From: Fidelibacterota bacterium
GTDB lineage: Bacteria > Fidelibacterota > Marinisomatia > Marinisomatales > UBA2128
Direction: 5' to 3'
Length of the DNA stretch: 39,094 nt
NCBI GenBank assembly: GCA_046861645.1
Contig: JBHHUM010000016.1
Location: forward strand, 1-39,094
Part shown: piece after piece, positions 1,417 through 23,697 of the stretch
How the letters are laid out: each line of letters starts with the position of its first letter
Numbering within the stretch: position 1 is the stretch's first letter
The notes under the pieces: generated by a model
Seen by the model: only the letters and a program-made list of their open reading frames with translations
Database searches by the model: none
What the model was told of the DNA's origin: nothing
Made by a program: the position numbers and the translations under genes

Positions 1417-1863
1417 CTAAATCAGTCCTAACTCCCTCATGATATTGTGTTTGTCGGCTACTCTTTTTGCCAGTTTCTTTAAGGATTCACGAGATAGCAT
1501 ATCATTAATCTCATCCCGGATGGGTTTCCAGCGGTGATGTAGAGGACACGGTTGTTCATCAGCGCATTTATCCAGCCCGAAGATGCAAGGATCCTCAGCT
1601 GGAGGAGGACCATCGATAGCATGAATTATCTCAGGCAAGTAGATTTCGCTCGCTGGTCTGGCTAACTTTATGCCTCCTTTGCGGCCCCGTACCGTTTCAA
1701 GCAAGTAGTGTCGACTGAGGATTTGTGTAATCTTGGCGAGGAATTGCTTAGGGATGTTATATCCTTCAGCAATCTCACCGATCATTACCGGACCTGGGTC
1801 GTTCTTCGAAGCGAGATAAATCATCGCCTGAATGCCGTATTCTGCTGATTTAGAGAATATCAT
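1417..1863 (-). CDS. Rrf2-family transcriptional regulator (paralogue 1, three Cys)
   Basis: SKSAEYG, wHTH, RGRKGG.KLARP and C-x6-C-x5-C-PLH. Confidence 0.92.
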   Translation of the reverse strand: MIFSKSAEYGIQAMIYLASKNDPGPVMIGEIAEGYNIPKQFLAKITQILSRHYLLETVRGRKGGIKLARPASEIYLPEIIHAIDGPPPAEDPCIFGLDKCADEQPCPLHHRWKPIRDEINDMLSRESLKKLAKRVADKHNIMRELGLI

Positions 1864-1916: not shown

Positions 1917-1941
1917 GAAATTTTATACGATTGATTATTAC

Positions 1942-2597
1942 CCCAAATTCCGACGTTGACGGCAAAAAAGAGAAAAAAACCATCATTGACTGAAGACGGA
2001 GATAGATTTCCAGCGATGTGGAGTTGATTTTCCCGATGGTGATAAACAGACAGGTATTTTTTCACAAAAACATACAGAGAAACTTGTTTTTCAGCGAAAC
2101 AAGATACAACTATCCCTCGGATTTCTGTTTCGTTTCACTAAAAAGTCGTTTATCTTCTTAATATCATCTGTTCCTGCATTTTTACCAAATCGCTGCAGCC
2201 ATTTGCCAACTGCATCGCTACCCGGCATATGTTTCATCTGGATTAATGAACGAAAGCCAACATCGTCTTTTATCCCTTGTATCTCTTCTAAATGTCTTCC
2301 ACCGTCTGTAAAATGGTAAACCAGTGTCCGTACATAATCAGAATAATTTATTCCACGCCCTGAACCAGGTAATGGAAGTTTTTATTCATTACCTTGGTAA
2401 ATTCAACTCCGGTCATAAACTCATCTACCAAAGCTAAATTGCCACGATCTGTTAATTTGGTTTTGGGTTGCTTGACCAAAAATGATAATATTTTTCGTTG
2501 CATATGTTCTCACCTCCAGGGTGTGTATTTGAATGTTTTTAACTAACTGTAATTTACGCACTTAGGGGGTGTTTTTATATTAATGTCGGAATTAGGG
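1942..2597 (-). mobile_element. Internally deleted IS1380-family insertion sequence (non-autonomous)
   Basis: Ends CCCAAATTCCGACGTTGA and (reverse complement) CCCTAATTCCGACATTAA match at 15/18; flanked by direct repeat TATTAC (1936-1941, 2598-2603); carries a transposase remnant. Confidence 0.8.
2091..2503 (-). pseudogene. IS1380-family transposase N-terminal fragment, frameshifted and truncated
   Basis: RBS GGAGGTG then MQRKILSFLVKQPKTKLTDRGNLALVDEF; frameshift in an A-run; then LPLPGSGRG..YV..L......GG.HLEE....DDVGF...MPGSDAVGKWLQRFG; DDE domain absent. Confidence 0.75.
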
Positions 2598-2715
2598 TAT
2601 TACTCTTATCTAGGAATTAAACTAAAGTTAATCTGCTTTTTAAGTGGTATGGTTGAATACTGGATATTAAAACCTGACTGAAGCTGTGGTAAGGCTGTTT
2701 AAAAGAGTATATCAG

Positions 2716-2774
2716 GATGAAAAACTCTTGACTTAGATTGATAAACTACTTAAATTCAGACAAACAGGCCTGAA
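2716..2774 (+). promoter_or_regulatory. Promoter of the rrf2-2/nos operon with flanking putative Rrf2 operators
   Basis: TTGACT(2728)-N17-TAAATT(2751); TTCA-GAC-AAACAG-GCC-TGAA at 2755-2774 and GAT-GAAAAA-CTC at 2716-2727. Confidence 0.6.
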
Positions 2775-2794
2775 TATCTGATACACAAAGTCAA

Positions 2795-3247
2795 ATGTCT
2801 TTAATCTTCAGCAGATCGTGTGAATACGCCCTCCAGTCCATAATATATCTTGCCGCTCAACCTCCCGGAAAACCATCTCTACAACGAGACATTTCCAAAG
2901 CTCTGAATATACCTCCACATTTCCTTGGTAAGATTCTCCAATCTTTAACTCATCATGAAATTGTTTCTTCCCAAAAAGGTAAATCTGGTGGTTTCATTCT
3001 TAACAAACCGGCTGATGAAATTTCTTTGATGACTGTGGTTAAGATAACCGATGGTGACCTATTCCTAGAAAAGTGTGTTATCGGTTTCCCCGGTTGTGAC
3101 GATGATAATGCCTGTCCACTCCACAGTCAATGGAGTGCTGCAAAAAAGATTATTATGCAAATGTTAAAGAACAAGCATGTTGCTGAACTCAGCGAGGAGC
3201 TGAAAACCAAATTAGATTATATTGCAGCCATTCAATTAAATGAGTGA
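2795..3247 (+). CDS. Rrf2-family transcriptional regulator (paralogue 2, three Cys)
   Basis: FSRSCEYALQ, KGKSGGF.L and CVIGFPGCDDDNACPLH. Confidence 0.92.
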   Translation: MSLIFSRSCEYALQSIIYLAAQPPGKPSLQRDISKALNIPPHFLGKILQSLTHHEIVSSQKGKSGGFILNKPADEISLMTVVKITDGDLFLEKCVIGFPGCDDDNACPLHSQWSAAKKIIMQMLKNKHVAELSEELKTKLDYIAAIQLNE

Positions 3248-3336
3248 ATAGGAGCAGGTAGAGGATAATCTAATGAGAGTGATGAACAGGTGGTTATCAT
3301 CGCTTAATGTAAAAATTTCCAATGATAGGTTGATTC

Positions 3337-4089
3337 ATGAAAAAACATCATAAAACTATTATTAGTACTTCCGTTGTCGTAGCGATTCTAGTTACGGGAT
3401 ATTTTTACATCTTATATGACAAGATTTACTTATCTAAGGAAAAGATTGAAATGAAAGATAATCTCAAAATTCAACATTTTGAGGGAGAATTTGATCTTAG
3501 TGTAGATGCCCTATTTTGGCAGGATATCAAAGCGGAACGAATACTATTATATCCTCAAGCAGCGAAATCACCCTACGGTACTTCGGAGAAGGAGTTGTGG
3601 GTAAAGGCGGCTTACAATAAAGAGGAGATTGCTTTTTTGATTGAATTTGAAGACAGCACGCAGGATCTTGGTACTCCTGCTAATCCCGACGCCTGTGCCC
3701 TGCTCCTTGCAGCTGCGGATGCTCCAGCCACAGCTCAGATGATGGGCTACGAAAGTACGGCTAATGTGTGGCAATGGTTGGCAGAAAGAGATGTGGAGAG
3801 ATTTGTCAAGGGTAACACATCTATTAAAGCAGTTCGAGAGTTAATTGCCCATGGACCGGGAACCCAGACCCCTCTTGAGAAACAGAATGTGGAAGGGAAA
3901 GGAATTTACAGTGAAGGTAAGTGGAAGGTAATCTTTAAACGGAAACTCAAGAGTAATCAAGAAGATGAATTTCAGTTGAAGGTGGGTACAAATATGCGTA
4001 TCGCTTTTGCACTCTGGGACGGATCAAAGATGGAGAGTTTTTCCAGGAAGTCGATAGCTATTTTGCGGAAATTAAGCTGGGAGATTTAA
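3337..4089 (+). CDS. Membrane-anchored DOMON-like heme-b protein (ethylbenzene dehydrogenase gamma subunit/EB_dh family)
   Basis: N-terminal TM helix; VKAAYN....F..EF.D, PDACA, MMG, VWQW, G.WKVIFKRKL, IAFALWDG...E...RK; candidate Met/Lys heme ligands as in EbdC. Confidence 0.75.
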   Translation: MKKHHKTIISTSVVVAILVTGYFYILYDKIYLSKEKIEMKDNLKIQHFEGEFDLSVDALFWQDIKAERILLYPQAAKSPYGTSEKELWVKAAYNKEEIAFLIEFEDSTQDLGTPANPDACALLLAAADAPATAQMMGYESTANVWQWLAERDVERFVKGNTSIKAVRELIAHGPGTQTPLEKQNVEGKGIYSEGKWKVIFKRKLKSNQEDEFQLKVGTNMRIAFALWDGSKMESFSRKSIAILRKLSWEI

Positions 4090-5981
4090 TGAAAAGGATA
4101 TTGCTGATATCAACAGTTGTTTTACTCAGTCTTACCACCTTTTCATGCAGCCAAGCGGAAGCCAATGTTTCTTCTAAGGGCAAGGTGAGGCATATTGAAT
4201 TAAGAGCAAAAAGATTTTCTTATACACCCAGTACTATCACTGTCAATAAAGGTGACAAGTTAGTGCTAAAACTAATCAGTGAAGACGTAACTCACGGTTT
4301 TTTCCTGGATGGTTACGATGTTGAATTCTACGTGCATCCTGGTGAAACCAGAGAGGTCATCATTAACGCCGATAAGGCTGGTAAATTCATCTTTCGTTGC
4401 TCAAAAACTTGTGGTGAGTTTCATCCTTATATGGTCGGACATCTAAAGGTTTTACCTAATACCAGGTTTTTAGGGGCAACTCTCCTCGTAGCTTTGCTTG
4501 GCTTGGGATCATTGGGTTTCTCCTTGCGATCGAAAGGTAATCCCAATCCCCATGAGAAGTTGTTTGGTTTGATTCCTCTCAACTGGAGATTCGAGCTTAC
4601 TAAATTCAAAATAGTTAGGCAGCTATTAAAAAGCAGATGGTTCCCCCTAGTCCCAATATTAATAAACTTATTTATCTTTGCGATTATTTTGGTGGCTGGT
4701 TTTGTAGGTGGTTTATCCTCCGGAAACTACAATTTTGGTATCATGATTGTCTGGATACTATGGTGGGTATTATTAATGATTATTATGGTGCCTGTTATTG
4801 GAAGATTCTGGTGTATGGTTTGTCCCTTTCCCCTTTTTGGAGATTGGCTACAGCGATTGAAACTGGTAAAGGTGGGAAGGCAAAAATCCTTTGGGTTGAA
4901 CAAGAGGTGGCCCAATGAAATTCGGAATCTCTGGCCTTTAGTTATCCTCTTTTTTGTCTCCACCTGGTTTTCGGGTTTCTTCACAGTTAGACCCTTTGCT
5001 ACTTTCATCTTTCTGTCAATAATTATTGGTACAGCAACTGTTGTAGCTCTGATTTATGGAAAGCGAACGTTCTGTCTTTTTATGTGTCCGGTCAGTGGTT
5101 TTCAGGGACTTTATGCCAATTTCTCCCTTTGCGAAGTGCGCGTCAAGGATCCAGAAGTCTGTAAGGGTCATACTCCTAAGACATGCGTAGTAGGTAACGA
5201 AAAGGGCTATGGATGTCCCTGGATGGAACAACCTTACGATTTAAACAGGAACACGTATTGCGGACTCTGTATGGAGTGCTTCAAGTCCTGCCCTCATGAT
5301 AATATGGCCTTCAACCTGCGGCCTTTTGGAGCTGATTTACTGGCGGAAAGAAAACGGACGGATGATAAATATCGGCGCCGGGGTTTGGATGAAGCTTTTA
5401 AAGCACTGACTATGATCGGGATTTTCATGGTTTTCTTCACAGCTTTTCAAAGTCCTTCCGGTGAATTCAAAGATATGGTAAGAGCAACCACGCTTAGTGG
5501 TTACTTTTCTTATATCACTGAGGCGGCCTTTGTTGATTTCCTGTTTATTCCCGGTTTATTCCTGTTGTTTGCTTATCTCTCAAAAAAATTCAGCAGGAAC
5601 AGGGAAGTCAAGCTGAAAGATGTATTTGTTAATTTTTCATATTGTTTGGTTCCTATTGGTCTGGGTATATGGGCGGCATTCAGCCTCGGTATTATCTTTC
5701 CTAATGGCAGTTATATTCTTCATATCCTTTCCGATCCATTTGCTTGGGGATGGGATCTATTTGGTACGGCGAAATATCCTTGGTCACCTTTTTTAACTGG
5801 TGCCATGCCCTTCTTACAAATTACCCTGATACTGGCTGGACTCCTGTTTGCACTGGATTATGGTTTTAAATTCGCCAGACAGACTTTTGCTACAATTACT
5901 GAAGCCAAAAGAGGTTGGATACCGATGCTTGTTTTTCTGGTGGGCATCAACATTTTCTTCATGAATCTTTTCGTAGGATAG
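4089..5981 (+). CDS. CuA-cupredoxin fused to a NosH/NapH-like polytopic 4Fe-4S membrane protein (probable lipoprotein)
   Basis: FSC lipobox-like signal; HGF...CSKTCGEFHPYM CuA motif; two CxxxCP motifs (CMVCP-like, CLFMCP); ferredoxin motif CGLCMECFKSCP; about 10 TM segments. Confidence 0.8.
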   Translation: MKRILLISTVVLLSLTTFSCSQAEANVSSKGKVRHIELRAKRFSYTPSTITVNKGDKLVLKLISEDVTHGFFLDGYDVEFYVHPGETREVIINADKAGKFIFRCSKTCGEFHPYMVGHLKVLPNTRFLGATLLVALLGLGSLGFSLRSKGNPNPHEKLFGLIPLNWRFELTKFKIVRQLLKSRWFPLVPILINLFIFAIILVAGFVGGLSSGNYNFGIMIVWILWWVLLMIIMVPVIGRFWCMVCPFPLFGDWLQRLKLVKVGRQKSFGLNKRWPNEIRNLWPLVILFFVSTWFSGFFTVRPFATFIFLSIIIGTATVVALIYGKRTFCLFMCPVSGFQGLYANFSLCEVRVKDPEVCKGHTPKTCVVGNEKGYGCPWMEQPYDLNRNTYCGLCMECFKSCPHDNMAFNLRPFGADLLAERKRTDDKYRRRGLDEAFKALTMIGIFMVFFTAFQSPSGEFKDMVRATTLSGYFSYITEAAFVDFLFIPGLFLLFAYLSKKFSRNREVKLKDVFVNFSYCLVPIGLGIWAAFSLGIIFPNGSYILHILSDPFAWGWDLFGTAKYPWSPFLTGAMPFLQITLILAGLLFALDYGFKFARQTFATITEAKRGWIPMLVFLVGINIFFMNLFVG

Positions 5982-5986
5982 TTCAA

Positions 5987-6370
5987 ATGCGTAAACAAGA
6001 AATCATAGCCGTAATTCTGGTAATTCTCTGTACAGTAGGTACTGTGTTAGCTATCTTCACTTATGAGTCCAGTCGCAAGATACCTGATACAGTGGAACTG
6101 TTGGCTCGCACTCCAGACAGAGGTAATTGGTCTCCAATACTCATCAGAGCAAAGAAGGACCAGGAGATAACACTGATTATAAGGAACGTCGACATCGTCT
6201 CACATGGATTTTACCTTCCCTCGTTTGATGTGATGGTAAGAGAGATCAAGGCCGGAGAAATTGAGACTGTTACCTTCACTCCTGATGAAGTGGGAAAGCA
6301 CCCTTTCTACTGTTCTGTCTGGTGTAGTGATTACCATATGCATATGAGGGGAGATTTAGTTGTTGAATAG
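5987..6370 (+). CDS. Membrane-anchored CuA cupredoxin (COX2-like domain)
   Basis: Start reassigned to ATG 5987 (MRKQEII), just after the previous stop; TM anchor; HGFY...CSVWCSDYHMHM. Confidence 0.85.
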   Translation: MRKQEIIAVILVILCTVGTVLAIFTYESSRKIPDTVELLARTPDRGNWSPILIRAKKDQEITLIIRNVDIVSHGFYLPSFDVMVREIKAGEIETVTFTPDEVGKHPFYCSVWCSDYHMHMRGDLVVE

Positions 6371-6379
6371 GAGGTTTCG

Positions 6380-7054
6380 ATGAACAAAAAACTAAACGTA
6401 TTAATAGGAATTGGAGTGGTTACAGCGATTGCTTTGGTGTTTATAGCATATCAGGAATACCAAGGGAGTCAGAAACCTGCAGCAAAGCTAAATGCTGACC
6501 ATCCAGCTTTGCAGAACCCTGATGTTGCCGGGAAGCAAGTCGTGGAAAGAATCGAACTTTCTACTAAAAAACCAGCCTTCAATTTCAGACTTACTGATAT
6601 GGATCGTACTTTAACACAGCTTGACGATTTTAAAGGGAAACTTGTTTTAGTTGGATTTATCTATACATCTTGTCCTGATGTATGTGGTTTGTTAACACAA
6701 CACTTTCGTTATATACAGAGGGAATTCAAGGATGAAATAGATAAAGATCTGGTATTGGTGTTGATCACGACTGATCCGGAGCGGGATACACCGGAAAGGA
6801 CAAAGGCCTATACTGATGGATTTCAGGGAAGATGGCATTTCCTTACAGGAAGTGAATCTCAATTAAGTGAAGTATGGGATGAATATAAGGTCTTTGTCCA
6901 GGCTAAGAAAAGTGTTGATCTTGTTTACCATAGTTACATGGTGGCGTTGATTGACAGAGATGCAAATATCCGCTACAGATATATCGGATTGGTTGACCCG
7001 GAAGAGGTTATTGTGAAAGACATCAAAAAGCTGCTAAAAGAGCAGGAGGTGTAA
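6380..7054 (+). CDS. SCO1/SenC copper chaperone
   Basis: FIYTSCPDVC (CxxxC), DPERDTP, WHFLTG, conserved His in VYHS; RBS GGAGG. Confidence 0.92.
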   Translation: MNKKLNVLIGIGVVTAIALVFIAYQEYQGSQKPAAKLNADHPALQNPDVAGKQVVERIELSTKKPAFNFRLTDMDRTLTQLDDFKGKLVLVGFIYTSCPDVCGLLTQHFRYIQREFKDEIDKDLVLVLITTDPERDTPERTKAYTDGFQGRWHFLTGSESQLSEVWDEYKVFVQAKKSVDLVYHSYMVALIDRDANIRYRYIGLVDPEEVIVKDIKKLLKEQEV

Positions 7055-7055
7055 T

Positions 7056-7568
7056 ATGAGAAAAAGAATAGCACGTTCATTGCTCCTGATACCTACTCTT
7101 ATAATGATGGTTTCGTGTTCACAGGATGGAGTAGGAGGACTGGCTCAAACAGAGGAATTTGTTCCAGGGGTCAAACGGTGGTCAGGTCCCTATCATAGGA
7201 TATCAGAGCCGTCTAGACGACCAGCTCATGAGTTAGGTAAACCCGATGTGACTATTACAATTGACGTAGTTACTGCTGAATACAGGCCTAATGTTATTCG
7301 TGTGAAACAGGGTCAGGTAGTGAAATTGATACTTAAAGGTGGTGATGACGGTGACTTACCGAAAATAACAGGGTTGACAAACTTCAGTGGACACGGTTTC
7401 CATGTCATAGGACCTTACGATATCTGGATCACAGGATTGAGATCAAATGTCGTCAGGGAGATTGTCTTCGAAGCTACCGTACCAGGGGAGTTTCCCATTG
7501 AGTGTGTCGTGTTCTGCAGTGTAGATCACTACAAGATGCGAGGCAAACTGATTGTTGAACCTGTCTGA
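7056..7568 (+). CDS. Lipoprotein CuA cupredoxin
   Basis: Signal ending VSC; HGFH...CVVFCSVDHYKM CuA motif. Confidence 0.82.
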   Translation: MRKRIARSLLLIPTLIMMVSCSQDGVGGLAQTEEFVPGVKRWSGPYHRISEPSRRPAHELGKPDVTITIDVVTAEYRPNVIRVKQGQVVKLILKGGDDGDLPKITGLTNFSGHGFHVIGPYDIWITGLRSNVVREIVFEATVPGEFPIECVVFCSVDHYKMRGKLIVEPV

Positions 7569-7599
7569 TATGTCAGTCTAGTTAAGAAGGAGACAAGAA

Positions 7600-9504
7600 A
7601 TGAACCTAAAAAAAGCAACTGGACTGTTGTTTTTGGCTGTACTTCTTTTAGGAGGTTGTGCGAAAGATAACCAGTCCGCTTCTAACCCTTACCAGAGGGC
7701 ATATCCGATGCCCCATCAATACTGGCAGGCGAACGATGAGTTCTATGTGTTTACCAGCGGTGGTCAACAGGGAGGGCTCTATGTGTATAGTATCCCATCG
7801 ATGAAATTCCTGCAGGAAATCCCAATTTTTGAACCAACGGCAGCAACCGGTTGGACTACGGCGAATCCTGAAGTGAAAAAGATGTTGACCAATCCAAGAA
7901 CTGGCGAGGTCCTACTTCACGGAGACACTCATCATCCAGCCATTAGCAAAACAGATGGTGTTTACGATGGTCGATGGCTATTTATCAATGATAAGACAAA
8001 CGCCCGTGTCGCTCGTGTTGACCTCTCCATCTTCAAACCCGTAGAAGTTCTCTGGGTACCTAATGTAACAGGTGGAATGCATGGTGCCCATGTCGGTCCG
8101 AATACAGACTTACTGATTGCCAATATAGAGTTGGAACAGTACCCAGTAAAGAAAATCCGGGACTATCTGAAAGTACCTATCGACAAGATGAAAGGACCCT
8201 ATGTTTCCTGTCTGGCAGGATTGGATATTGCAGATAATGGCAGTATGTCAAATGCTTTCCAGGTGTGGGGTCCCTGGCAATTTGATATGGTTCGTGTGGG
8301 CTGGGGAGAAATGGATGGTTGGCTGGTGAATACCGCTTACAATACGGAGCGCTCTACAAACGTTGTCGGGATGTTTGAAAGACCAGAAGATTACCTCTTC
8401 TTCTGGAATATTGAGAGCATCAGGCAAGCAGTAAAGGATGGGAAATATATCACTACCAAGGAAGCTCCAGATGTGCCTGTTGTGGCCTGGAGAGATGTGG
8501 AGGTCTATGCCATCCCTTGTCCATTAAATCCTCATGGAGTAGATATTTCACCGACAGGTACGTATGCTCTCTCCAGTGGAAAGGCGACTACTCTTGTTCG
8601 GGCTTACGACTTCAGAAAAGTAAAACAGGCCATTGCTCAGAAAAGGTTTTCTGGTGAGGAGTTTGGAGTCAAAATCATAGATAAGACATTCGTATCTGTG
8701 GATATTGATGCTGGTCTGGGCCCAACTCACATTGAATACGACAACAAAGGATTCGCATACGTTGGATTCTTTGTGGACTCAGATGTAAAGAAGATTACTT
8801 TAGGTGATCCCTACACTGAGAAGCACGGGATGGAACCATGGCAGGTTGTAGATGTAATACCTGCCCACTATTCTGTGGGACACTTATTGGTGCCGGGTGG
8901 CGATACAGCTTCTCCGTATGGTAAGTATCTGGTAATCATGAATAAGCTTACTAAGGATACTTTTCTCCCTCACGGTCCCATGATTGCCGAAAACCATGAG
9001 TTGTTTTCCATTGAGGAGATGCCAGCACTGATGATTGATCAGATGCCCATTCCACCGGAACCACACTATTCTCAGGCCATCCCTGTTGACCTACTGAAAC
9101 CGATGATTACAACAGTTTATTCCCAAGCGGGAGACTTTGGACAGCCCGGAGTAGAATACGACTACAAGCATAAGGAAGTTCGTGTCAAGATGAGCGCTGT
9201 AAGATCCTTTTTTACACCAGACTGGTTTACCGTGCCAAGTGGCTGGAATGTGAAGATGGAAATTGCCAATGTTGAGGAAGCCCTTGATATCACTCACGGA
9301 ATCGCCTTTACAGGTGGTCATGACGTCATGGAATCTCTGGATCCTGGAGAAATTAAGACCCTAGAACTGAAAGCTGATCATGAGGGGGTCTATTGGTATT
9401 ATTGTCTGTGGTTTTGCAGTGAACTGCATATGGAGATGCGTGGCAGAATGATAGTGATTCCAGCAAACCGTTGGGACAAGAGTAAAGAATGGCAGCCAGC
9501 ATAA
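7600..9504 (+). CDS. nosZ: Nitrous oxide reductase NosZ-family enzyme, Sec-dependent lipoprotein (clade II-like, divergent)
   Basis: LGGC lipobox, no twin-Arg; CuZ His motifs DTHH, GMHG, NPHG, GPTH, VGH, EPHY; catalytic-Lys region MNKLTKD; CuA THG...CLWFCSELHMEM; YDGRWLFINDK.NARVAR. Confidence 0.9.
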   Translation: MNLKKATGLLFLAVLLLGGCAKDNQSASNPYQRAYPMPHQYWQANDEFYVFTSGGQQGGLYVYSIPSMKFLQEIPIFEPTAATGWTTANPEVKKMLTNPRTGEVLLHGDTHHPAISKTDGVYDGRWLFINDKTNARVARVDLSIFKPVEVLWVPNVTGGMHGAHVGPNTDLLIANIELEQYPVKKIRDYLKVPIDKMKGPYVSCLAGLDIADNGSMSNAFQVWGPWQFDMVRVGWGEMDGWLVNTAYNTERSTNVVGMFERPEDYLFFWNIESIRQAVKDGKYITTKEAPDVPVVAWRDVEVYAIPCPLNPHGVDISPTGTYALSSGKATTLVRAYDFRKVKQAIAQKRFSGEEFGVKIIDKTFVSVDIDAGLGPTHIEYDNKGFAYVGFFVDSDVKKITLGDPYTEKHGMEPWQVVDVIPAHYSVGHLLVPGGDTASPYGKYLVIMNKLTKDTFLPHGPMIAENHELFSIEEMPALMIDQMPIPPEPHYSQAIPVDLLKPMITTVYSQAGDFGQPGVEYDYKHKEVRVKMSAVRSFFTPDWFTVPSGWNVKMEIANVEEALDITHGIAFTGGHDVMESLDPGEIKTLELKADHEGVYWYYCLWFCSELHMEMRGRMIVIPANRWDKSKEWQPA

Positions 9505-9541
9505 GTGAGAACCCTCTGATTCTTCCTATCACGCTGGGAGC

Positions 9542-9597
9542 AGTGCAGACGGTCACTCGAGGATGTATTATCTTCGAGTGACCACTTCGTCTGCATT
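9542..9597 (+). other. Strong intra-operonic stem-loop after nosZ (no U-tract)
   Basis: GGTCACTCGAGGAT/ATCTTCGAGTGACC inner stem nested in AGTGCAGAC/GTCTGCATT. Confidence 0.7.
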
Positions 9598-9612
9598 ACG
9601 GGGAGATCAACA

Positions 9613-11076
9613 GTGATCCGCACTAAATATCATGACTATAGGCTGATTCTGGGGATATTAATTCTCTTTACCTTTACTACAGTTTCCGGGCATGAGAGAA
9701 TTAATTTTGAGATTCACTATACAGCTAAAGTATTTAACCTACCCCAATCCGCCCAGAGGGTGAGGATTTGGATTCCATACCCTCAGAGTGACGAATATCA
9801 GCAAATTTATAACATCAAATTATTTTCGAAATATCCAACCTATATTCATTCTGATGATGAGTTTGGTAATAGTCTTTTATACTTGGAAATCGAAAATCCA
9901 ATAGAAAAGGAAATCGAAGTCAGTATGAATATTCTGGCTTCAAGGGTGGATGTGTTGAATCACATTGTAGATGACTTGGTGGGGGAATTAAGTGCTCAGG
10001 AGATACGGGAATTTGAACAATATTTCCGTTCCAATTTGGATAGTAAGGAGCAGAAGCAAGTACAGGAAATAGTAGATAATTTCATTGATAGAAACGCTCC
10101 TTATATTCAAAAGGTACGGGCGCTTTACAATTATGTCTATAACAACATGGACTATCGGAAAGATGTTCCTGGTTACGGCAAGGGAGATGTAGGTAGAGCT
10201 TGCAAAGTGGGCAGTGGAAACTGTATAGATTTTCACTCTCTGTTTGTAAGTCTTGCTCAGGAAGCAGGTGTTGTGGCCACTGAAGTTGGCAACATTGACC
10301 TGCCATTTGAAGAAGGGGTACCGAACTATTGTGCAGCGAACTATCACTGTAATGTGGAAGTATATCTACCCAATTATGGCTGGATTCCTCTGGATATTTC
10401 ACACGCCAAAAAAGGGAAAGGAAGTAAAGACTTTTATTTTGGTTCCCTGGATAATTTGAGACTTAAACTCGGCCGCGGTAGACAGATCAAGCTCAGTCCA
10501 GAGCAAGAAGGGAGAAGAATTGACCGCCTTCTCCACAAACCCTATGTAGAAATTGATGGTGTTGTATTTGAAGACGTCGAGGTGAGTGTATTAGCAGCGA
10601 CCTACGATAAAGGTGACAGACTTAATCGACGTCCTCATCTAATTGCTAAGGGGGAAGCTGCAGTGCCATTCAGTTGGCTCGACGTTGAGGGTACGGTATT
10701 TAATATGGCTGAGTTTTTAGGAAAAAAACCGATGGTGATTAATTTCTTTTCTACTTGGTGTGGAAGGTGTGTGTGGGAAACAGAAGGATTAAACAAAGCC
10801 AGCTATGATTTCAGCCAGATAAAGTTTGTTCGTATTAACTTAATGGAGGACAGTGAGAAAGTTTTTCAGTTTGCTCAAGAGAAACAAATTCCTTATCCTG
10901 TACTTGCCGACGAAAAAGGTGAATTAGCAAGATTATATGGTATCAAGTATGTACCGACCAATATTATCATTGATGCCAATGGTAAGGTCTTTTATTCTGG
11001 AGGACTCCAATCAGAAGAAGAGTTAAGGAATCGTTTGAAACATGTTACAGCAAACCATTTCGCGACTAAAGAGTGA
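9613..11076 (+). CDS. Exported transglutaminase-like domain protein fused to a C-terminal TlpA/redoxin domain
   Basis: Signal peptide; GNCIDFHSLF (Cys), YHC (His), WIPLD (Asp) triad; C-terminal INFFSTWCGRC...YGIKYVPT thioredoxin-like motif. Confidence 0.8.
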   Translation: MIRTKYHDYRLILGILILFTFTTVSGHERINFEIHYTAKVFNLPQSAQRVRIWIPYPQSDEYQQIYNIKLFSKYPTYIHSDDEFGNSLLYLEIENPIEKEIEVSMNILASRVDVLNHIVDDLVGELSAQEIREFEQYFRSNLDSKEQKQVQEIVDNFIDRNAPYIQKVRALYNYVYNNMDYRKDVPGYGKGDVGRACKVGSGNCIDFHSLFVSLAQEAGVVATEVGNIDLPFEEGVPNYCAANYHCNVEVYLPNYGWIPLDISHAKKGKGSKDFYFGSLDNLRLKLGRGRQIKLSPEQEGRRIDRLLHKPYVEIDGVVFEDVEVSVLAATYDKGDRLNRRPHLIAKGEAAVPFSWLDVEGTVFNMAEFLGKKPMVINFFSTWCGRCVWETEGLNKASYDFSQIKFVRINLMEDSEKVFQFAQEKQIPYPVLADEKGELARLYGIKYVPTNIIIDANGKVFYSGGLQSEEELRNRLKHVTANHFATKE

Positions 11077-11636
11077 AAAAGAAATTATTGTTCCTGATTT
11101 CAGGTGGTTTAATCATCTGCTCAACATTTTTACCGTATTTGATTATAGTTTTTACCTCTCCTCAATATCCTGATAGAAATCCGAAGATGTACCTCTATGT
11201 TGATAGACTTGAGGGTGATATGCAAGAGTGGGAACATATGGGGTGGTATATTGGAATCGACGTTACACCTGATCTTCCCGAACTTGAAAACAACACCTTT
11301 CTGGATATATTAATTATTTTGGGTTTGCTTGTCGTCATAACAGCATTTTTAAACAACAGGTTGAAAAAGGCTGCAAGTATTTTACTCCTTACTTGTGGTT
11401 TGGTGATGGCAGGATGGGCACAATACAGGTTATATCTTCAGGGGCACGATTTGGACCCCAAGGCACCCATGCGTTTTGTAGTAAAGCCGTTTACCCCGCC
11501 CTTAATTGGAGTAACTAAGGTGAGTAAAATAAGAATATATCATCTGCCACATTTGGGTTCATTGCTATTTATACTGGGTGCAGGTATTATTTTCTACACA
11601 GCTTGGTGGAAAAAGGATGAATTAAATCAAATGTAA
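11073..11636 (+). CDS. nosB: NosB-like four-TM membrane protein of clade II nos clusters
   Basis: PQYP, GD..E.....YIG, GHDLDPKAP, PPLIG and P..G motifs; downstream of nosZ. Confidence 0.75.
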   Translation: MKKKLLFLISGGLIICSTFLPYLIIVFTSPQYPDRNPKMYLYVDRLEGDMQEWEHMGWYIGIDVTPDLPELENNTFLDILIILGLLVVITAFLNNRLKKAASILLLTCGLVMAGWAQYRLYLQGHDLDPKAPMRFVVKPFTPPLIGVTKVSKIRIYHLPHLGSLLFILGAGIIFYTAWWKKDELNQM

Positions 11637-11706
11637 AAGTAAATCATTTGATTCGTTTTTATCATCTCTCCGAAGATACTCAAAACATAATTTTTATTAA
11701 ATCTAA

Positions 11707-12285
11707 TCATATAGAAGTGACTGGAGTAAATTTACAATACCCAATTTTATCCGATTCTTCCTTCATTGTACTCCAAGTAGAGGGGTCATCTATTACTTTC
11801 AATGCAGCGGGATAGAGCACTTCATTTTCCTTTTTGATATGGGTCCGAAGAATGCGGGCAATTCCTCTGGCATAGAAACCCATTTTACCCAGCATTTCAT
11901 TCCAGTTTTCTTCTATGGCCGCATTGGCGGATGATATCAAACCTTCCTTGTAAAGCTGTAAGGTTTCATGTTCTGAGCGCATGACGTTGGGTGGCCCTAG
12001 GATTCCTCTTTTCTCAATTTCAGGGAATAGAATCTCTTCTTCCCGTTTATGGTGAGATTCAACATCGTGCATAGTCTGAGCCAGTTCTTTCATTTCTTTA
12101 AGTATATCATATTGTTCCGAAAGTGGATGGTAGGGATCCAGAGAATTGGCTAATTCTTCTAGACGATTGAGATAGCTTAGAATAATAATATGTTCCTCGG
12201 CAAGAATTTTTAAGGCGTGCCCATGAGGGAGAGCAGCAAATTGCTTATTCAGTTTATGGGAAGATTCTCTATCAGTTGGGTTCAT
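11707..12285 (-). CDS. Hemerythrin/HHE cation-binding domain protein (DUF438-like)
   Basis: EEH, HHKREEEILFP, GPPNVMRSEH, HIKKENEVLYP, IGYC motifs. Confidence 0.82.
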   Translation of the reverse strand: MNPTDRESSHKLNKQFAALPHGHALKILAEEHIIILSYLNRLEELANSLDPYHPLSEQYDILKEMKELAQTMHDVESHHKREEEILFPEIEKRGILGPPNVMRSEHETLQLYKEGLISSANAAIEENWNEMLGKMGFYARGIARILRTHIKKENEVLYPAALKVIDDPSTWSTMKEESDKIGYCKFTPVTSI

Positions 12286-12712
12286 TTATTACTCGCTTAT
12301 TTTGTGCTTTGTCATTATTCATTATGTGCTCGATAGTTGTCCCTTTAAAGAATTTTATCATCTGGTTTTGAATAGGATTCCATTTGGCATGTACCTGACA
12401 AGGATCTGCGGTACAACATTTTTTTAACCGGATGAGACATTCCGTGAATATTTTATCACTCTCTATAATAGAGACAATATCATAGAGACTTATTGATTCG
12501 GGTGCTATGGCCAAAGCTACTCCACCCAGTGGGCCTCGGGATGACTTTAGTATACCCTCTTCAGTCAGTTTATGAGATATTTTGCTGAGATAATGAAAGG
12601 GTAGACCGGTTTCATCAGCAATCCGGTTCAACCGGTAAAACTTATTACGATCTTTACTGTAGAGGGAGAGCAGAAGTTCTATGGCATATTCCGTGGAGCG
12701 AGTCAGGATCAT
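12272..12712 (-). CDS. Rrf2-family transcriptional regulator (paralogue 3)
   Basis: TRSTEYAI, SSRGPLGGV.LA, CLIRLKKCCTADPCQVH. Confidence 0.9.
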   Translation of the reverse strand: MILTRSTEYAIELLLSLYSKDRNKFYRLNRIADETGLPFHYLSKISHKLTEEGILKSSRGPLGGVALAIAPESISLYDIVSIIESDKIFTECLIRLKKCCTADPCQVHAKWNPIQNQMIKFFKGTTIEHIMNNDKAQNKRVINEPN

Positions 12713-12893
12713 GTTAAAGTATTTGTTAATTCAATGTGATATAGATACAGTCTACAGCAGTTTGCTTTATTCGATTTGTAAAGGAAAATAGAGTGGGAAT
12801 AGGAATTAACATTTCAGGACACCAATTGACTTTGAAGGTTTCTTGTCCTCTTTTAGTGGTGTAATGATTGAAGAAAGTGTTACTGCAATTCCC

Positions 12894-12963
12894 GATCTGT
12901 TTATCCTCTTTCTAAATTAAGTAATCCCCATTGTGTTGTCAAGTACTTTCCGACATTTATATC
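12894..12963 (-). promoter_or_regulatory. Promoter of rrf2-3/hemerythrin with two putative Rrf2 operators
   Basis: Minus strand TTGACA(12942-12937)-N17-TAATTT(12919-12914); GAT-AAACAG-ATC at 12905-12894 and GAT-ATAAAT-GTC at 12963-12952. Confidence 0.6.
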
Positions 12964-13238
12964 CAAATTCTATATTTATGGTGAACAAATCCTTTAGGGA
13001 AATGCTTCGGAAAATGTACATGGTTGGATAAAAAATCCTGTAAAACCTCGGCAAATGACCATTCTTTAGATTAGTATCACCCCCCTCTGCAGAGGGAATA
13101 AAAGGGTCAATAGTGAGTTAATCATTCTCTATTGCACTTAATTAGAGATCACAGTAGATCAGATTTATCAGATTTCAAACTTGAAAAGTAGCGTTAGTAG
13201 GATAAATACTGGGAGATTAAAAGCAACCTAATTATCAA

Positions 13239-13850
13239 TCACTCTTCCACGACGAATCTACCCTTAATTTTCTTTCCCAATCCCAGAACCAGTTCATCTC
13301 CCCCGTGAAGTGAGCCTACTCCGCTGGGCGTTCCTGTGTAGATAAGGTCACCGACTATGAGGGGCAGACGGCTCGAGAAGTAGGCAATGAGTGTTGGGAC
13401 ATCGAACACCATCTGATCCATATTGCCCCGCTGGACTTCTTTACCGTTGAGTGTAAGCCAGAAGTCATGGCTCCAGGCGCTCAAGTCCAGTTGCTCGAAC
13501 TGGGTGATGACCGCTGAGCCGAGGAATGATTTGGCGAGGAACCATGGCAAACGTTTCTCCTTTAATTTCTGCTGCAAGGGACGGTCTGTAAGATCGAGCC
13601 CAAGACAGAGACCGTCCACATGATGCCATGCTTCTTTCACGGGGATATTGCTGCCACCTTTACCAATGGAAGCCACAATTTCCAGTTCGTAGTGGATTTC
13701 TCGACTTTGAGGAAGTTTGATTACAGGATCAGCAGAGAGGCAAACAGATGACTTCTGGAAGAAGATAGGTTCGTCCAAAATCTGGTTCCCCATCTCCTGA
13801 GCGTGAGCAATGTAGTTACGTCCCACGGCGTAAATGTTTGCTGTTTTTAT
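13239..13850 (-). CDS. Fumarylacetoacetate hydrolase family protein
   Basis: IYAVGRNY..HA.E, EP.FF.K, HYELE, GLDLT.R..Q, PWFLAKSF, GDLIYTGTPSGVG; start probably ATA at 13850, not GTG at 13826. Confidence 0.88.
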   Translation of the reverse strand: MKTANIYAVGRNYIAHAQEMGNQILDEPIFFQKSSVCLSADPVIKLPQSREIHYELEIVASIGKGGSNIPVKEAWHHVDGLCLGLDLTDRPLQQKLKEKRLPWFLAKSFLGSAVITQFEQLDLSAWSHDFWLTLNGKEVQRGNMDQMVFDVPTLIAYFSSRLPLIVGDLIYTGTPSGVGSLHGGDELVLGLGKKIKGRFVVEE

Positions 13851-22770: not shown

Positions 22771-23697
22771 ATGTCTCTTGGTTTATTACTTTGGTTCAGT
22801 TGTACCAGTTTAATCCCTTTAAAAGTGGGGCCTGCTTCAGATATTAAGATTGAGAGAACGTCTGCCAAGCTTTCCAGAGGAAAGTATCTGATGGATAATG
22901 TAGTACATTGTCTCTATTGTCATTCGAAATTTGATGAGCGGTATTATTCTTTCCCACCAGCTCCACGGAGTGAAGGAATTGGAGGTGCTGCATTTGAAGA
23001 AGATTTTGGCATCGTTTATGGTGCTAATATTACTCCCTCAGCCCTTGGTGATTGGTCGGATGGTGAAGTCATCCAAGCAATTACTGAAGGAGTAAATAAG
23101 AAAGGTGAGTCTCTCTTTCCAATTATGTCTTATCCTCAACTCAGGTTCATGTCAACAGAAGATGTTTATTCAGTTGTCTCATATTTGCGCACTCTCGAAC
23201 CCATTTCTAATAAAGTCAGTGCCAAGAAATTAAAATTCCCATTAGGATATATTGAACGCACCTTTCCCAAACCGTGGACACCACAACCCCAACCTGATCC
23301 TGCAAATAAGGTCGCCTATGGCAAATACCTTGCTACGATAGCAAATTGCATTATGTGTCATACACCAACAGATAAAATGGGCAAGCCATTACCTGGGATG
23401 TATCTGGCTGGTGGTCAGAGGTTTAGGTTCCAGGGTGGTGAGGTTTTCTCTACTAATCTAACCCCTGATTTAGAAAGTGGAATTGGGAATCGTTCACAAC
23501 AAGAGTTCATAGATCTTTTCAGGTCCTTTAAAGATCCTATCGTGGTACCACCGGATAAAAAAAGTGAAAATACAGTTATGCCATGGATGGCATTCGCCGG
23601 AATGACAGACGAAGACTTAGGGGCAATATTCGCCTTTTTGAGGTCGGTTAAATCTGTAAAAAATGTCGTAGAAAAGTGGCCTGCTAAAGAAGGGTAA
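22771..23697 (+). CDS. Diheme c-type cytochrome, probable lipoprotein
   Basis: Two heme motifs CLYCH and CIMCH with RGKYL, NITP, G.W, L.P.M, MPW; WFSC lipobox-like. Confidence 0.88.
   Translation: MSLGLLLWFSCTSLIPLKVGPASDIKIERTSAKLSRGKYLMDNVVHCLYCHSKFDERYYSFPPAPRSEGIGGAAFEEDFGIVYGANITPSALGDWSDGEVIQAITEGVNKKGESLFPIMSYPQLRFMSTEDVYSVVSYLRTLEPISNKVSAKKLKFPLGYIERTFPKPWTPQPQPDPANKVAYGKYLATIANCIMCHTPTDKMGKPLPGMYLAGGQRFRFQGGEVFSTNLTPDLESGIGNRSQQEFIDLFRSFKDPIVVPPDKKSENTVMPWMAFAGMTDEDLGAIFAFLRSVKSVKNVVEKWPAKEG

Follow-up and report, generated by a model that had tools for sequence, protein, structure and literature searches.

A Fidelibacterota Operon with Four CuA Motifs Probably Encodes a Divergent N2O Reductase Matured Without NosDFYL

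Results and Discussion

Gene Content of the Operon

The analysed stretch of DNA (the window) comprises 39,094 nucleotides of a Fidelibacterota bacterium (contig JBHHUM010000016.1). Its positions 3337–11636 hold eight open reading frames in one orientation and, with an Rrf2 gene upstream, form a run of nine co-oriented genes separated by 89, −1, 5, 9, 1, 31, 108 and −4 nt, in sequence. The initial annotation had described a single tightly packed operon, which the gene order and gap lengths bear out. The features are as follows (some proteins are named below by the first position of their gene):

1922..13227, no strand: island with the whole operon, approx. 11.3 kb, boundaries approximate (comparison with congeners)
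2795..3247, plus strand: Rrf2-family regulator with three cysteines (PF02082, 98 bits)
3337..4089, plus strand: EbdC/NxrC-like heme-b protein with N-terminal membrane anchor (PF09459, 91 bits)
4089..5981, plus strand: exported CuA domain fused to a NapH/NosH-like polytopic Fe-S membrane protein (Cupredoxin and Fer4_5)
5987..6370, plus strand: membrane-anchored CuA cupredoxin (C109–M120 motif with H73; transmembrane segment 6–24)
6380..7054, plus strand: Sco1/SenC copper chaperone, C98-x3-C102 and H184 (PF02630, 98 bits)
7056..7568, plus strand: CuA cupredoxin (motif with H113 and from C150 onward)
7600..9504, plus strand: NosZ with lipoprotein-type signal (C20); CuZ histidines 111/112/161/312/377/428/489 and CuA intact
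9542..9597, plus strand: stable stem-loop 3' of the nosZ stop (z −4.7)
9613..11076, plus strand: fusion of an exported transglutaminase-like domain and a TlpA-like thioredoxin, 487 aa (PF01841 and AhpC-TSA/Redoxin)
11073..11636, plus strand: NosB-like membrane protein (assigned by alignment to the clade II gene that follows nosZ)
11707..12285, minus strand: hemerythrin/YtfE-like di-iron protein on the island (PF01814, 70 bits; weak YtfE/RIC matches)
12272..12712, minus strand: second Rrf2 regulator on the island (PF02082, 101 bits)

The congeners G272 and G212 match the window at 6–1921 and 6–1170, respectively, and again from 13228–13259 onward within about 160 and 75 bases, while the operon has no match in any of three congeners. 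A broken ORF at about 2094–2505, which in our view resembles a transposase remnant, was rejected as such for want of a Pfam match, and a promoter and terminator scan gave results at chance level (26 versus 27.3 expected). YtfE/hemerythrin genes flank the operon in the window and in two related loci (L081 and L083). The upstream Rrf2 protein is probably the regulator of the operon, and its gene is found at the matching position in L011, L014, L019 and L134. The gap 3' of nosZ carries a stem-loop also in L011 (z −4.1) and L081 (z −3.3), with differing sequences, and it is possible that this is an mRNA-stabilising or attenuating element.

The complete CuA motif (C-x3-C-x3-H-x2-M) is present four times in the operon, each copy with an upstream His, in the 4089, 5987 and 7056 proteins and at the NosZ C-terminus, just as initially annotated. 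The ligands are H69, C104, C108, H112 and M115 in the 4089 protein, and H566, C602, C606, H610 and M613 in NosZ. Since a six-frame scan of the 2.5-Mb genome found nine such motifs in total, the clustering of four of them in one operon is not due to chance. None of the nine operon proteins contains a CxxCH motif, in agreement with the same annotation. The Pfam and NCBIfam assignments (EB_dh, cupredoxin with Fer4_5, SCO1-SenC, nos_propeller) also support the SCO chaperone and the EbdC-like heme-b protein it had named; its NosB, with no family match in Pfam or NCBIfam, is supported by alignment, with 26–29% identity to the gene 3' of nosZ in clade II clusters (26%, E 3e-8, for Deinococcus ficus).

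The EbdC-like protein matches 7b04_C and 2ivf_C, and its M136 and K238, presumably the Met/Lys heme ligands, are invariant (7/7). In the transglutaminase-TlpA protein, which the initial annotation had passed over, the triad C204, H245 and D261 is invariant (9/9), followed by the thioredoxin motif C383-x2-C386; in L083 and L085 an in-frame TGA replaces the first CxxC cysteine, probably encoding selenocysteine. The 7056 cupredoxin is probably a lipoprotein, and in the ESM Atlas it fell into generic cupredoxin clusters only. As judged by inspection of hydropathy and lipobox, most parts of the system appear membrane-tethered, as had been proposed for all of them, while the transglutaminase-TlpA protein looks soluble.

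Copper Sites and Placement of NosZ

NosZ scores below all three NCBIfam cut-offs: 497.9 for clade II (TIGR04246, cut-off 625), 352.3 for clade I (TIGR04244, cut-off 625) and 138.2 for clade III (NF052460, cut-off 700). Four of its relatives reach 430–514 on the clade II model (cut-off 625). The AlphaFold model of NosZ (pLDDT 90) resembles solved N2O reductases, with a seven-bladed propeller and a CuA cupredoxin domain (Foldseek TM 0.78–0.81), and the domain match is Pfam nos_propeller, with no Lactonase match. By alignment, no CuZ histidine (seven in all) or CuA ligand is missing (H161 is matched in the HMMER alignment and shifted by one column in the MAFFT one), and K449, E487 and E559, which we take to be second-sphere and proton-coupling positions, are invariant in 32/32 sequences. 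The export signal is lipobox-like by inspection, and a twin-arginine motif is absent.

In phylogenetic analysis, NosZ and about 80 relatives from several phyla form their own branch (support 100/100, IQ-TREE, 50 rows), which is again separate in a FastTree tree of 100 rows. The branch lies outside the clade II crown (99/99), and in the IQ-TREE tree only it is sister to clade II (97/91). Mean identity of the lineage is 31% to clade I and 35% to clade II, while clades I and II share 36%; grouping with clade III and its relatives was rejected by the AU test (p = 0.0097). Its sequence thus places this NosZ as a separate lineage of clade rank, neither clade III nor ordinary clade II.

Absence of NosDFYL and Conservation of the Gene Set

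The operon itself lacks nosDFYL, as initially annotated. Searches of this genome, which is 94.5% complete, recovered no NosL, NosY or NosG and no NosD match exceeding the cut-off, nor did they reveal a canonical nos cluster elsewhere. For NosF no call is possible, as generic ABC ATPases align with it at about 36%. NosD exceeded the cut-off in two of 14 genomes carrying this nosZ, each of which has, next to nosD, a second nosZ of the canonical kind (a second nosZ was searched for in 8/14), and NosL was found in the same two.

It could be argued that NosD and NosL were missed through incomplete assemblies, and that the system is an ordinary divergent clade II one, as the carriers are MAGs or contigs throughout (completeness 92–94.5% for the 4/14 with a value) and two of 36 control genomes (same phylum, clade II) had no NosD match either. 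However, NosD is present in the other 34 controls, NosD and NosL are absent from all 12 genomes in which this lineage is the only nos system detected, and none of the 40 loci of the lineage carries nosD, nosY or nosL, whereas canonical nosD lies within a few kb of nosZ in control genomes. We regard this explanation as very improbable.

Regarding the gene set, a CuA gene stands directly 5' of nosZ in all 31 loci with at least 300 nt upstream, its CuA ligands are invariant in 26/26 proteins of the 7056 type, and nosB follows nosZ in 32 of 34 loci; no second CuA motif was found in 32 clade II control loci. The 7056 CuA protein is the constant partner of this NosZ lineage, and the core conserved across phyla consists of the upstream CuA protein, nosZ and nosB, usually with Sco (Sco family in 23/40 loci) and thiol-redox proteins. 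The four-CuA "wire" of the initial annotation is present here, but it is one of two architectures: the CuA-NosH fusion occurs in 8/40 loci and EbdC in 7/40 (many loci are short), and Chloroflexota-type clusters have neither, carrying PCuAC and a CcdA-like protein. In the present genome, a search for PCuAC was negative. Other members encode a DUF318/ArsP permease; this family (F13) was also considered as a YeeE-type sulfur transporter, and rejected as such, being ArsP_1/DUF318 with a weak match to a Cu/Zn efflux family.

This nosZ was carried by two of 401 sampled Chloroflexota genomes and four of 401 same-phylum genomes, so the lineage is rare among the genomes searched. In a plasmid collection, only clade I and II relatives were among the matches listed (50 of 254). 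Thermoflexus was rejected as a cultured carrier, its cluster being given as nosZDYL in the accessible text of PMC8129789.

Two other functions for NosZ have to be weighed. According to the first, the protein is a NosZ-fold enzyme with a different, possibly sulfide-free multi-copper cluster, acting on another substrate (NO, O2) or performing other N2O chemistry. Consistent with this are the absence of NosDFYL and of any candidate for sulfur delivery, the 36 lineage-specific conserved residues (including the extra histidines H409 and H458), H466 as His in 32/32, and a genome in which no nirK, cd1, NapA/NarG or Nor-like genes that would make N2O were found. On the other hand, the first and second spheres wholly match canonical N2O reductase, NosB is kept, and in one locus (L080), the sole one of 40 beside nap/nir genes, two genes with cytochrome-d1 domains and napA lie immediately upstream of the operon; moreover, nosZ-only N2O reducers are numerous, as stated in the available part of PMC10359470. 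We hold this possibility to be rather unlikely.

According to the second, NosZ carries CuA only, with an empty CuZ pocket, and serves in electron transfer or copper storage within a CuA redox chain formed by the operon. The accessory genes are indeed CuA-assembly factors, a CuA/NosH-like/CuA trio without nosZ occurs on contig C165 of this genome and in five other genomes examined, and 12 of 76 relatives covering the sites have lost one or more CuZ histidines with CuA kept, so the catalytic site can be lost in parts of the lineage. Yet the seven histidines are complete in the other 64, at 50–60% identity, which an empty pocket would not need, and three degenerate copies apparently co-occur with an intact one, suggesting paralogs beside a working enzyme. 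This second function is improbable, more so than the first.

Electron Supply

The 4089 protein shares 22% identity with clade II NosH (E 6e-11), and its CuA ligands, Fe-S cysteines and CxxxCP motifs are conserved in 7/7 sequences, with His361 occupying one cluster position. Its 42% paralog lies on contig C165, where a CuA/NosH-like/CuA-diheme-c module precedes a Rieske-cytochrome b-8-heme complex; the paralog of the 5987 protein there is the fusion with the diheme cytochrome c.

CcoG is a cupric reductase, and the 4089 protein might be a CcoG-like reductase or maturation factor, with NosZ receiving its electrons from c-type cytochromes encoded elsewhere. Fer4_5 spans several functions, the NapH model (TIGR02163) gives only 24 bits against a cut-off of 213, the genome is rich in c-type cytochromes, and Chloroflexota-type clusters do without the 4089 protein. 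Nevertheless, the paralog shares a gene run with the Rieske/cytochrome b complex and the CuA-diheme-c protein, the fused CuA is an electron-transfer site, and a maturation factor would be expected in every member, which leaves this role a minor, though not negligible, likelihood. Such a role would bear only on the donor path, and N2O reduction could still take place.

The initial annotation had also suggested a heme-c-independent module. This was not established, as the genome has 43 ORFs with CxxCH, the paralogous CuA module lies beside a Rieske/cytochrome b/multiheme-c complex, and c-type cytochromes adjoin the operon in four loci (L011, L083, L085, L093).

Complex prediction for NosZ and the 7056 protein gave 0.49 versus 0.01 for the best control, with contacts agreeing at least 52% and partner pLDDT of at least 71. 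Of the solved pairs, 116 of 157 reached the mark, as did two of 215 mismatched pairs; at scores up to 0.60 it was reached by only 18 solved pairs and both mismatches. The result lends weak support to the complex; the pass might also stem from the resemblance of the 7056 protein to the CuA domain of NosZ itself.

Proposed Mechanism and Significance

Taken together, the ligands, fold and gene neighbourhood suggest that the NosZ of this operon is probably a genuine N2O reductase. Its lineage, of clade rank and seemingly undescribed, would receive electrons from CuA proteins and mature its enzyme without NosDFYL. To hypothesize, the NosH-like membrane domain would draw electrons from the quinol pool and hand them to the fused periplasmic CuA, which in this architecture would replace NosG; from there they would reach the anchored CuA of the 5987 protein, possibly with the heme-b protein; the 7056 CuA lipoprotein would be the direct donor to the CuA of NosZ in place of cytochrome c, and the Rieske/cytochrome b complex of contig C165 may feed the same chain. 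We infer this order of carriers by analogy.

The CuZ site would be built without NosD, NosY or NosL in a NosZ lineage near clade II. Copper may be loaded by a cytochrome-oxidase-type kit (Sco and TlpA kept reduced) together with NosB, to which PCuAC, the CcdA-like protein and the DUF318/ArsP permease would be added in other members. To our knowledge, Sco, TlpA and PCuAC serve CuA alone, and the analysis identified no candidate for a sulfur carrier to CuZ. In the accessible texts, NosB is a usual clade II accessory gene (PMC11409646), and TlpA, ScoI and PcuC assemble CuA of cytochrome oxidase (PMC6669012). The available part of PMC13685413 states that in clade I loss of nosD, nosF or nosY yields a CuZ-free enzyme, that CuZ reconstitution, in vitro or in a foreign host, has not succeeded in the absence of accessory proteins, and that the entry of sulfur and copper into CuZ is still an unresolved question. 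A canonical-fold NosZ with all ligands and no NosDFYL would make CuZ assembly testable with a small defined gene set (the CuA protein, nosZ, nosB, Sco and a thiol reductase).

The host seems to consume N2O without denitrifying. We give roughly even chances to a broader reading, in which the lineage makes up a fourth family of N2O reductases at clade rank, present in eight or more phyla and frequently annotated as "hypothetical protein". This family would use a NosDFY/NosL-free route to CuZ and dedicated stand-alone CuA donors, some members perhaps being heterodimers of a catalytic and a CuA-only subunit. If true, such donors would open a new route for electron entry, one for which the literature searched gave no description.

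Biological removal of N2O depends mainly on N2O reductase. Several NCBI records label members of the lineage "hypothetical protein", while JGI records label them "nitrous-oxide reductase" (KO). Because the lineage falls below every NCBIfam cut-off and often lacks a name, clade-based surveys may miss or misfile it, and it may be an uncounted sink for this greenhouse gas; should the enzyme not reduce N2O to N2, KO-based counts would overestimate the sink.

Comparison with Known Systems

No description of the gene set was found in the literature searched, most subscription journals being outside its reach. Term searches found no matching clade in the accessible part of PMC12569097 and no matching passage in that of PMC11148229. 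A Nitrospirota NosZ-like clade was rejected as the same lineage, being lactonase-type in the available text of PMC11033732. NosZG7 from cold-seep metagenomes is likewise sequence-divergent, NosZ-like in structure and placed with clade II in the accessible part of PMC11828985, and may be the same branch; the two were compared by description alone, that text describes no nosD-less cluster, and "transglutaminase" had no match in the available part of its xlsx supplement (term search).

With clade I (Tat) NosZ structures of P. stutzeri, M. nauticus and P. denitrificans, the protein shares the fold and all copper ligands, but identity is 31%, a Tat signal is lacking, and the operon has neither nosR nor nosDFYL; NosPQ goes with clade I, according to the available part of bioRxiv 10.64898/2025.12.16.694761.

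Clade III lactonase-type enzymes (NF052460) also lack nosDFYL, as already reported in the accessible parts of PMC13685413 and PMC13477213, and the former makes clade III a precedent for N2O reduction without these genes. Unlike them, the present NosZ has the nos_propeller domain and keeps H112, which is Glu in 4/4 clade III rows, and its operon is without clade III-type MacB/ABC or cytochrome b genes.

Clade II clusters (Deinococcus ficus pDFI2, same-phylum loci L110–L113) share the Sec/lipoprotein-type export, nosB after nosZ, a NosH-like Fe-S membrane protein and an Rrf2 regulator, and clade II gives the best HMM score and is the likely sister group. In contrast, this operon has no nosD, nosY, nosL or nosG, mean identity is 35% with a score below the TIGR04246 cut-off, a CuA protein replaces cytochrome c beside nosZ, and Sco and TlpA are inside the operon.

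Finally, CuA assembly of aa3 oxidase (TlpA, ScoI, PcuC), as described in the available part of PMC6669012, shares the Sco CX3C motif with His and the TlpA-like CxxC thioredoxin, but here these factors are encoded with NosZ and up to three more CuA proteins, and TlpA is fused to a transglutaminase-like domain.

The NosZ lineage

The window NosZ is a separate lineage, taken here together with about 80 relatives. It scores below all three NCBIfam cut-offs (498 of 625, 352 of 625 and 138 of 700), and its predicted fold is the N2OR fold. Among the best 120 homologues of 2917 passing sequences, 83 share 46–100% identity with it; in the rest, which are clade II wherever named or tested, identity falls to 35–40%. 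By source names, the members come from Fidelibacterota, Chloroflexota (including Dehalococcoidia, SAR202 and Anaerolineales), Spirochaetota, Acidobacteriota, Planctomycetota, Aminicenantes, Bacteroidota and one Thiogranum MAG.

When placed in a phylogeny of clades I, II and III with IQ-TREE (LG+G4 without a mixture model, 50 rows out of the 100 assembled), the lineage formed its own group (support 100/100) with homologue P0081 as its sister; the two together were sister to clade II (97/91), which was monophyletic without the lineage (99/99). FastTree on all 100 rows also placed the lineage outside clades I and II, yet on the same side of the root as clade I, so the two trees disagree on the sister relation of the lineage. 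Grouping with clade III and its relatives was rejected by the AU test (p = 0.0097, 33 rows). P0081, P0122, P0126, P0143, P0275 and P0288 are further deep-branching NosZ sequences that miss both the clade I and the clade II cut-off. Additionally, a small lactonase-type group (P0160, P0269-P0273), whose scores on the model for clade III are near 400 against a cut-off of 700, is placed by its branching between that clade and clades I/II.

The operon and its island

The initial annotation described one packed, co-oriented operon with four CuA motifs and no CxxCH, and this description holds: there are nine plus-strand genes, four complete CuA motifs (of nine of the operon type in the whole genome) and no CxxCH in the operon proteins.

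Gene order of the operon
2795 onward, plus strand: Rrf2 regulator, EbdC-like heme-b protein, CuA/NosH-like Fe-S membrane fusion, anchored CuA protein
to 11636, plus strand: Sco, lipoprotein-like CuA protein (the 7056 protein), NosZ, transglutaminase-like/TlpA fusion (TGase-TlpA), NosB

The window corresponds to contig C43 in a genome (G000) of 94.5% completeness; the closest named relatives, at 78%, are Fidelibacterota (Marinisomatota) MAGs. An island of about 11.3 kb carries the operon; two congeners lack this island at the matching site, and in a third the operon was not found. At the left edge of the island lies a broken ORF (2094-2505, minus strand) whose DNA matches contig C59 at 72%; it resembles a transposase remnant but has no Pfam match. 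Three Rrf2 regulators lie inside 11 kb of the window (1417-1863, 2795-3247, 12272-12712), the rest of the genome has four or more others, and a diheme cytochrome c gene (22771-23697) is found 11 kb downstream of the operon, off the island.

Conserved neighbours

A 7056-like CuA protein is encoded immediately 5' of nosZ in all 31 lineage loci long enough to show it. Of 34 loci, 32 have nosB downstream; of the other two, one breaks off at a contig end and the other has sco as the following gene. Among 32 control loci of clade II, four being duplicates and most covering flanks of 1.5 kb, none showed a second CuA motif. Of the gene set proposed as a unit, the core is conserved, but the accessory genes split into two architectures. 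In the window type, the additional genes encode EbdC, the CuA-NosH fusion, another CuA protein and TGase-TlpA. Clusters of the Chloroflexota type carry a CcdA/DsbD-like membrane protein (19 loci), an ArsP/DUF318 permease (8) and a TlpA on its own (4), and often a pair of Sco genes and a two-component system; PCuAC, otherwise of the Chloroflexota type, occurs in six loci, one of them window-type. Locus L080, whose operon comes after cytochrome-d1-domain genes and napA, has a window-type upstream half and carries the CcdA-like protein and permease where TGase-TlpA would stand, which suggests that the two sets are equivalent in role.

Absence of NosD, NosY and NosL

The proposed lack of nosDFYL was borne out genome-wide for the proteins searched: G000, with a single nosZ, has no NosD match over the cut-off and no NosL match at all, and tblastn with NosD, NosY and NosL proteins of canonical clusters returned nothing. 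Neither nosD, nosY, nosL nor nosG occurs within 40 lineage loci, a set including short or near-duplicate loci (L013, L088, L090; L014 with L018). Among 14 distinct carrier genomes (G000, G001-G012, G767; kin among them are not independent, and 10 have no completeness figure), NosD and NosL occur only in G011 and G012, each of which holds a second, canonical-type nosZ adjoining nosD. The lineage nosZ itself is interrupted in assembly in G008 and G012. In a same-phylum control of 36 genomes carrying clade II nosZ, 34 had NosD (E below 1e-20), and the same search found it in none of three lineage carriers of 92–94% completeness (identical with G001, G002 and G004). Six genomes of this phylum (G107, G172, G183, G021, G076, G080) combine a long clade II NosZ (frames of about 770–830 aa) with two NosD copies.

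Heme c and a paralogous module

Although the operon lacks heme c, as the initial annotation stated, the heme-c independence of the system was not borne out, owing to a module elsewhere in the genome. Contig C165 (862-12858, locus L133) carries a split paralogue of the CuA module without nosZ: a trio of a CuA protein, a NosH-like protein (42% identical) and a CuA-diheme-c fusion, followed 3' by a GltD-like flavoprotein, a Rieske protein, cytochrome b (split) and a cytochrome with eight hemes (these later labels come from inspection and homology). The trio recurs in genomes G127, G315, G288 and G330, with the full run in G315, and immediately 5' of clade II nosZ in loci L110 and L113 there is a related Rieske/cytochrome b/multiheme set. 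Therefore, the trio seems to be a general-purpose, quinol-linked CuA module recruited to nosZ. Large multiheme cytochromes of G000 include one with 32 CxxCH (C142:11877-16144) and a 955-aa frame with 17.

Proposed mechanism

In the simplest account, N2O would be reduced at an ordinary CuZ/CuA dimer that receives its electrons from the stand-alone CuA protein, and an oxidase-type chaperone set would supply the copper. All seven CuZ histidines are present in the window NosZ and in 64 of 76 relatives covering the sites; the other 12 (P0058, P0061, P0063, P0064, P0070-P0075, P0010, P0013) have lost at least one and keep CuA where covered. In three pairs of a degenerate and an intact copy (P0070/P0405, P0061/P0027, P0013/P0006), the longest contig is of equal length for both, a coincidence that may hint at heterodimers.

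The suggested docking of the 7056 protein on NosZ is weakly supported by the complex prediction (0.49 versus 0.01 for the best control), a score that may reflect the resemblance of 7056 to the CuA domain within NosZ. According to PMC6669012, TlpA maintains the cysteines of Sco and CuA in reduced form, and CuA is loaded by Sco and PcuC. Two relatives have an in-frame TGA at the first Cys of the TlpA CxxC with homology continuing beyond (L083:10687-11133, L085:13380-13826), so these domains are probably selenoproteins, and a selenocysteine at this position would fit a redox role of the TlpA domain.

CuZ assembly is the weak point of this mechanism. In clade I, CuZ is gone once nosD, nosF or nosY is lost (PMC13685413, section 9). 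There is no obvious sulfur carrier among the operon genes of the lineage, and by elimination NosB, the transglutaminase-like domain and the permease are candidates for this role. No nirK, cd1, NapA/NarG or Nor-like oxidase was found in G000, which would make the host a scavenger of N2O produced by other organisms.

Comparison with known systems

A 2026 review names three NosZ clades, of which it gives only clade III as being without nosDFYL (PMC13685413); a lake study reports cytochromes and transporters as clade III neighbours (PMC13477213). NosZG7, a divergent branch reported from cold seeps (PMC11828985 and preprint), is described in the text covered here without its gene neighbourhood and may overlap with the lineage. 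No account of this gene cluster was found in the literature within reach of the search, which excluded most subscription journals. The cluster is a real and conserved variant of the N2O reductase system, apparently an undescribed one, and the lineage likely functions as an N2O reductase. Mean identity within the lineage is 59%, whereas to clades I, II and III it is 31%, 35% and 26%, respectively, compared with 36% between clades I and II.
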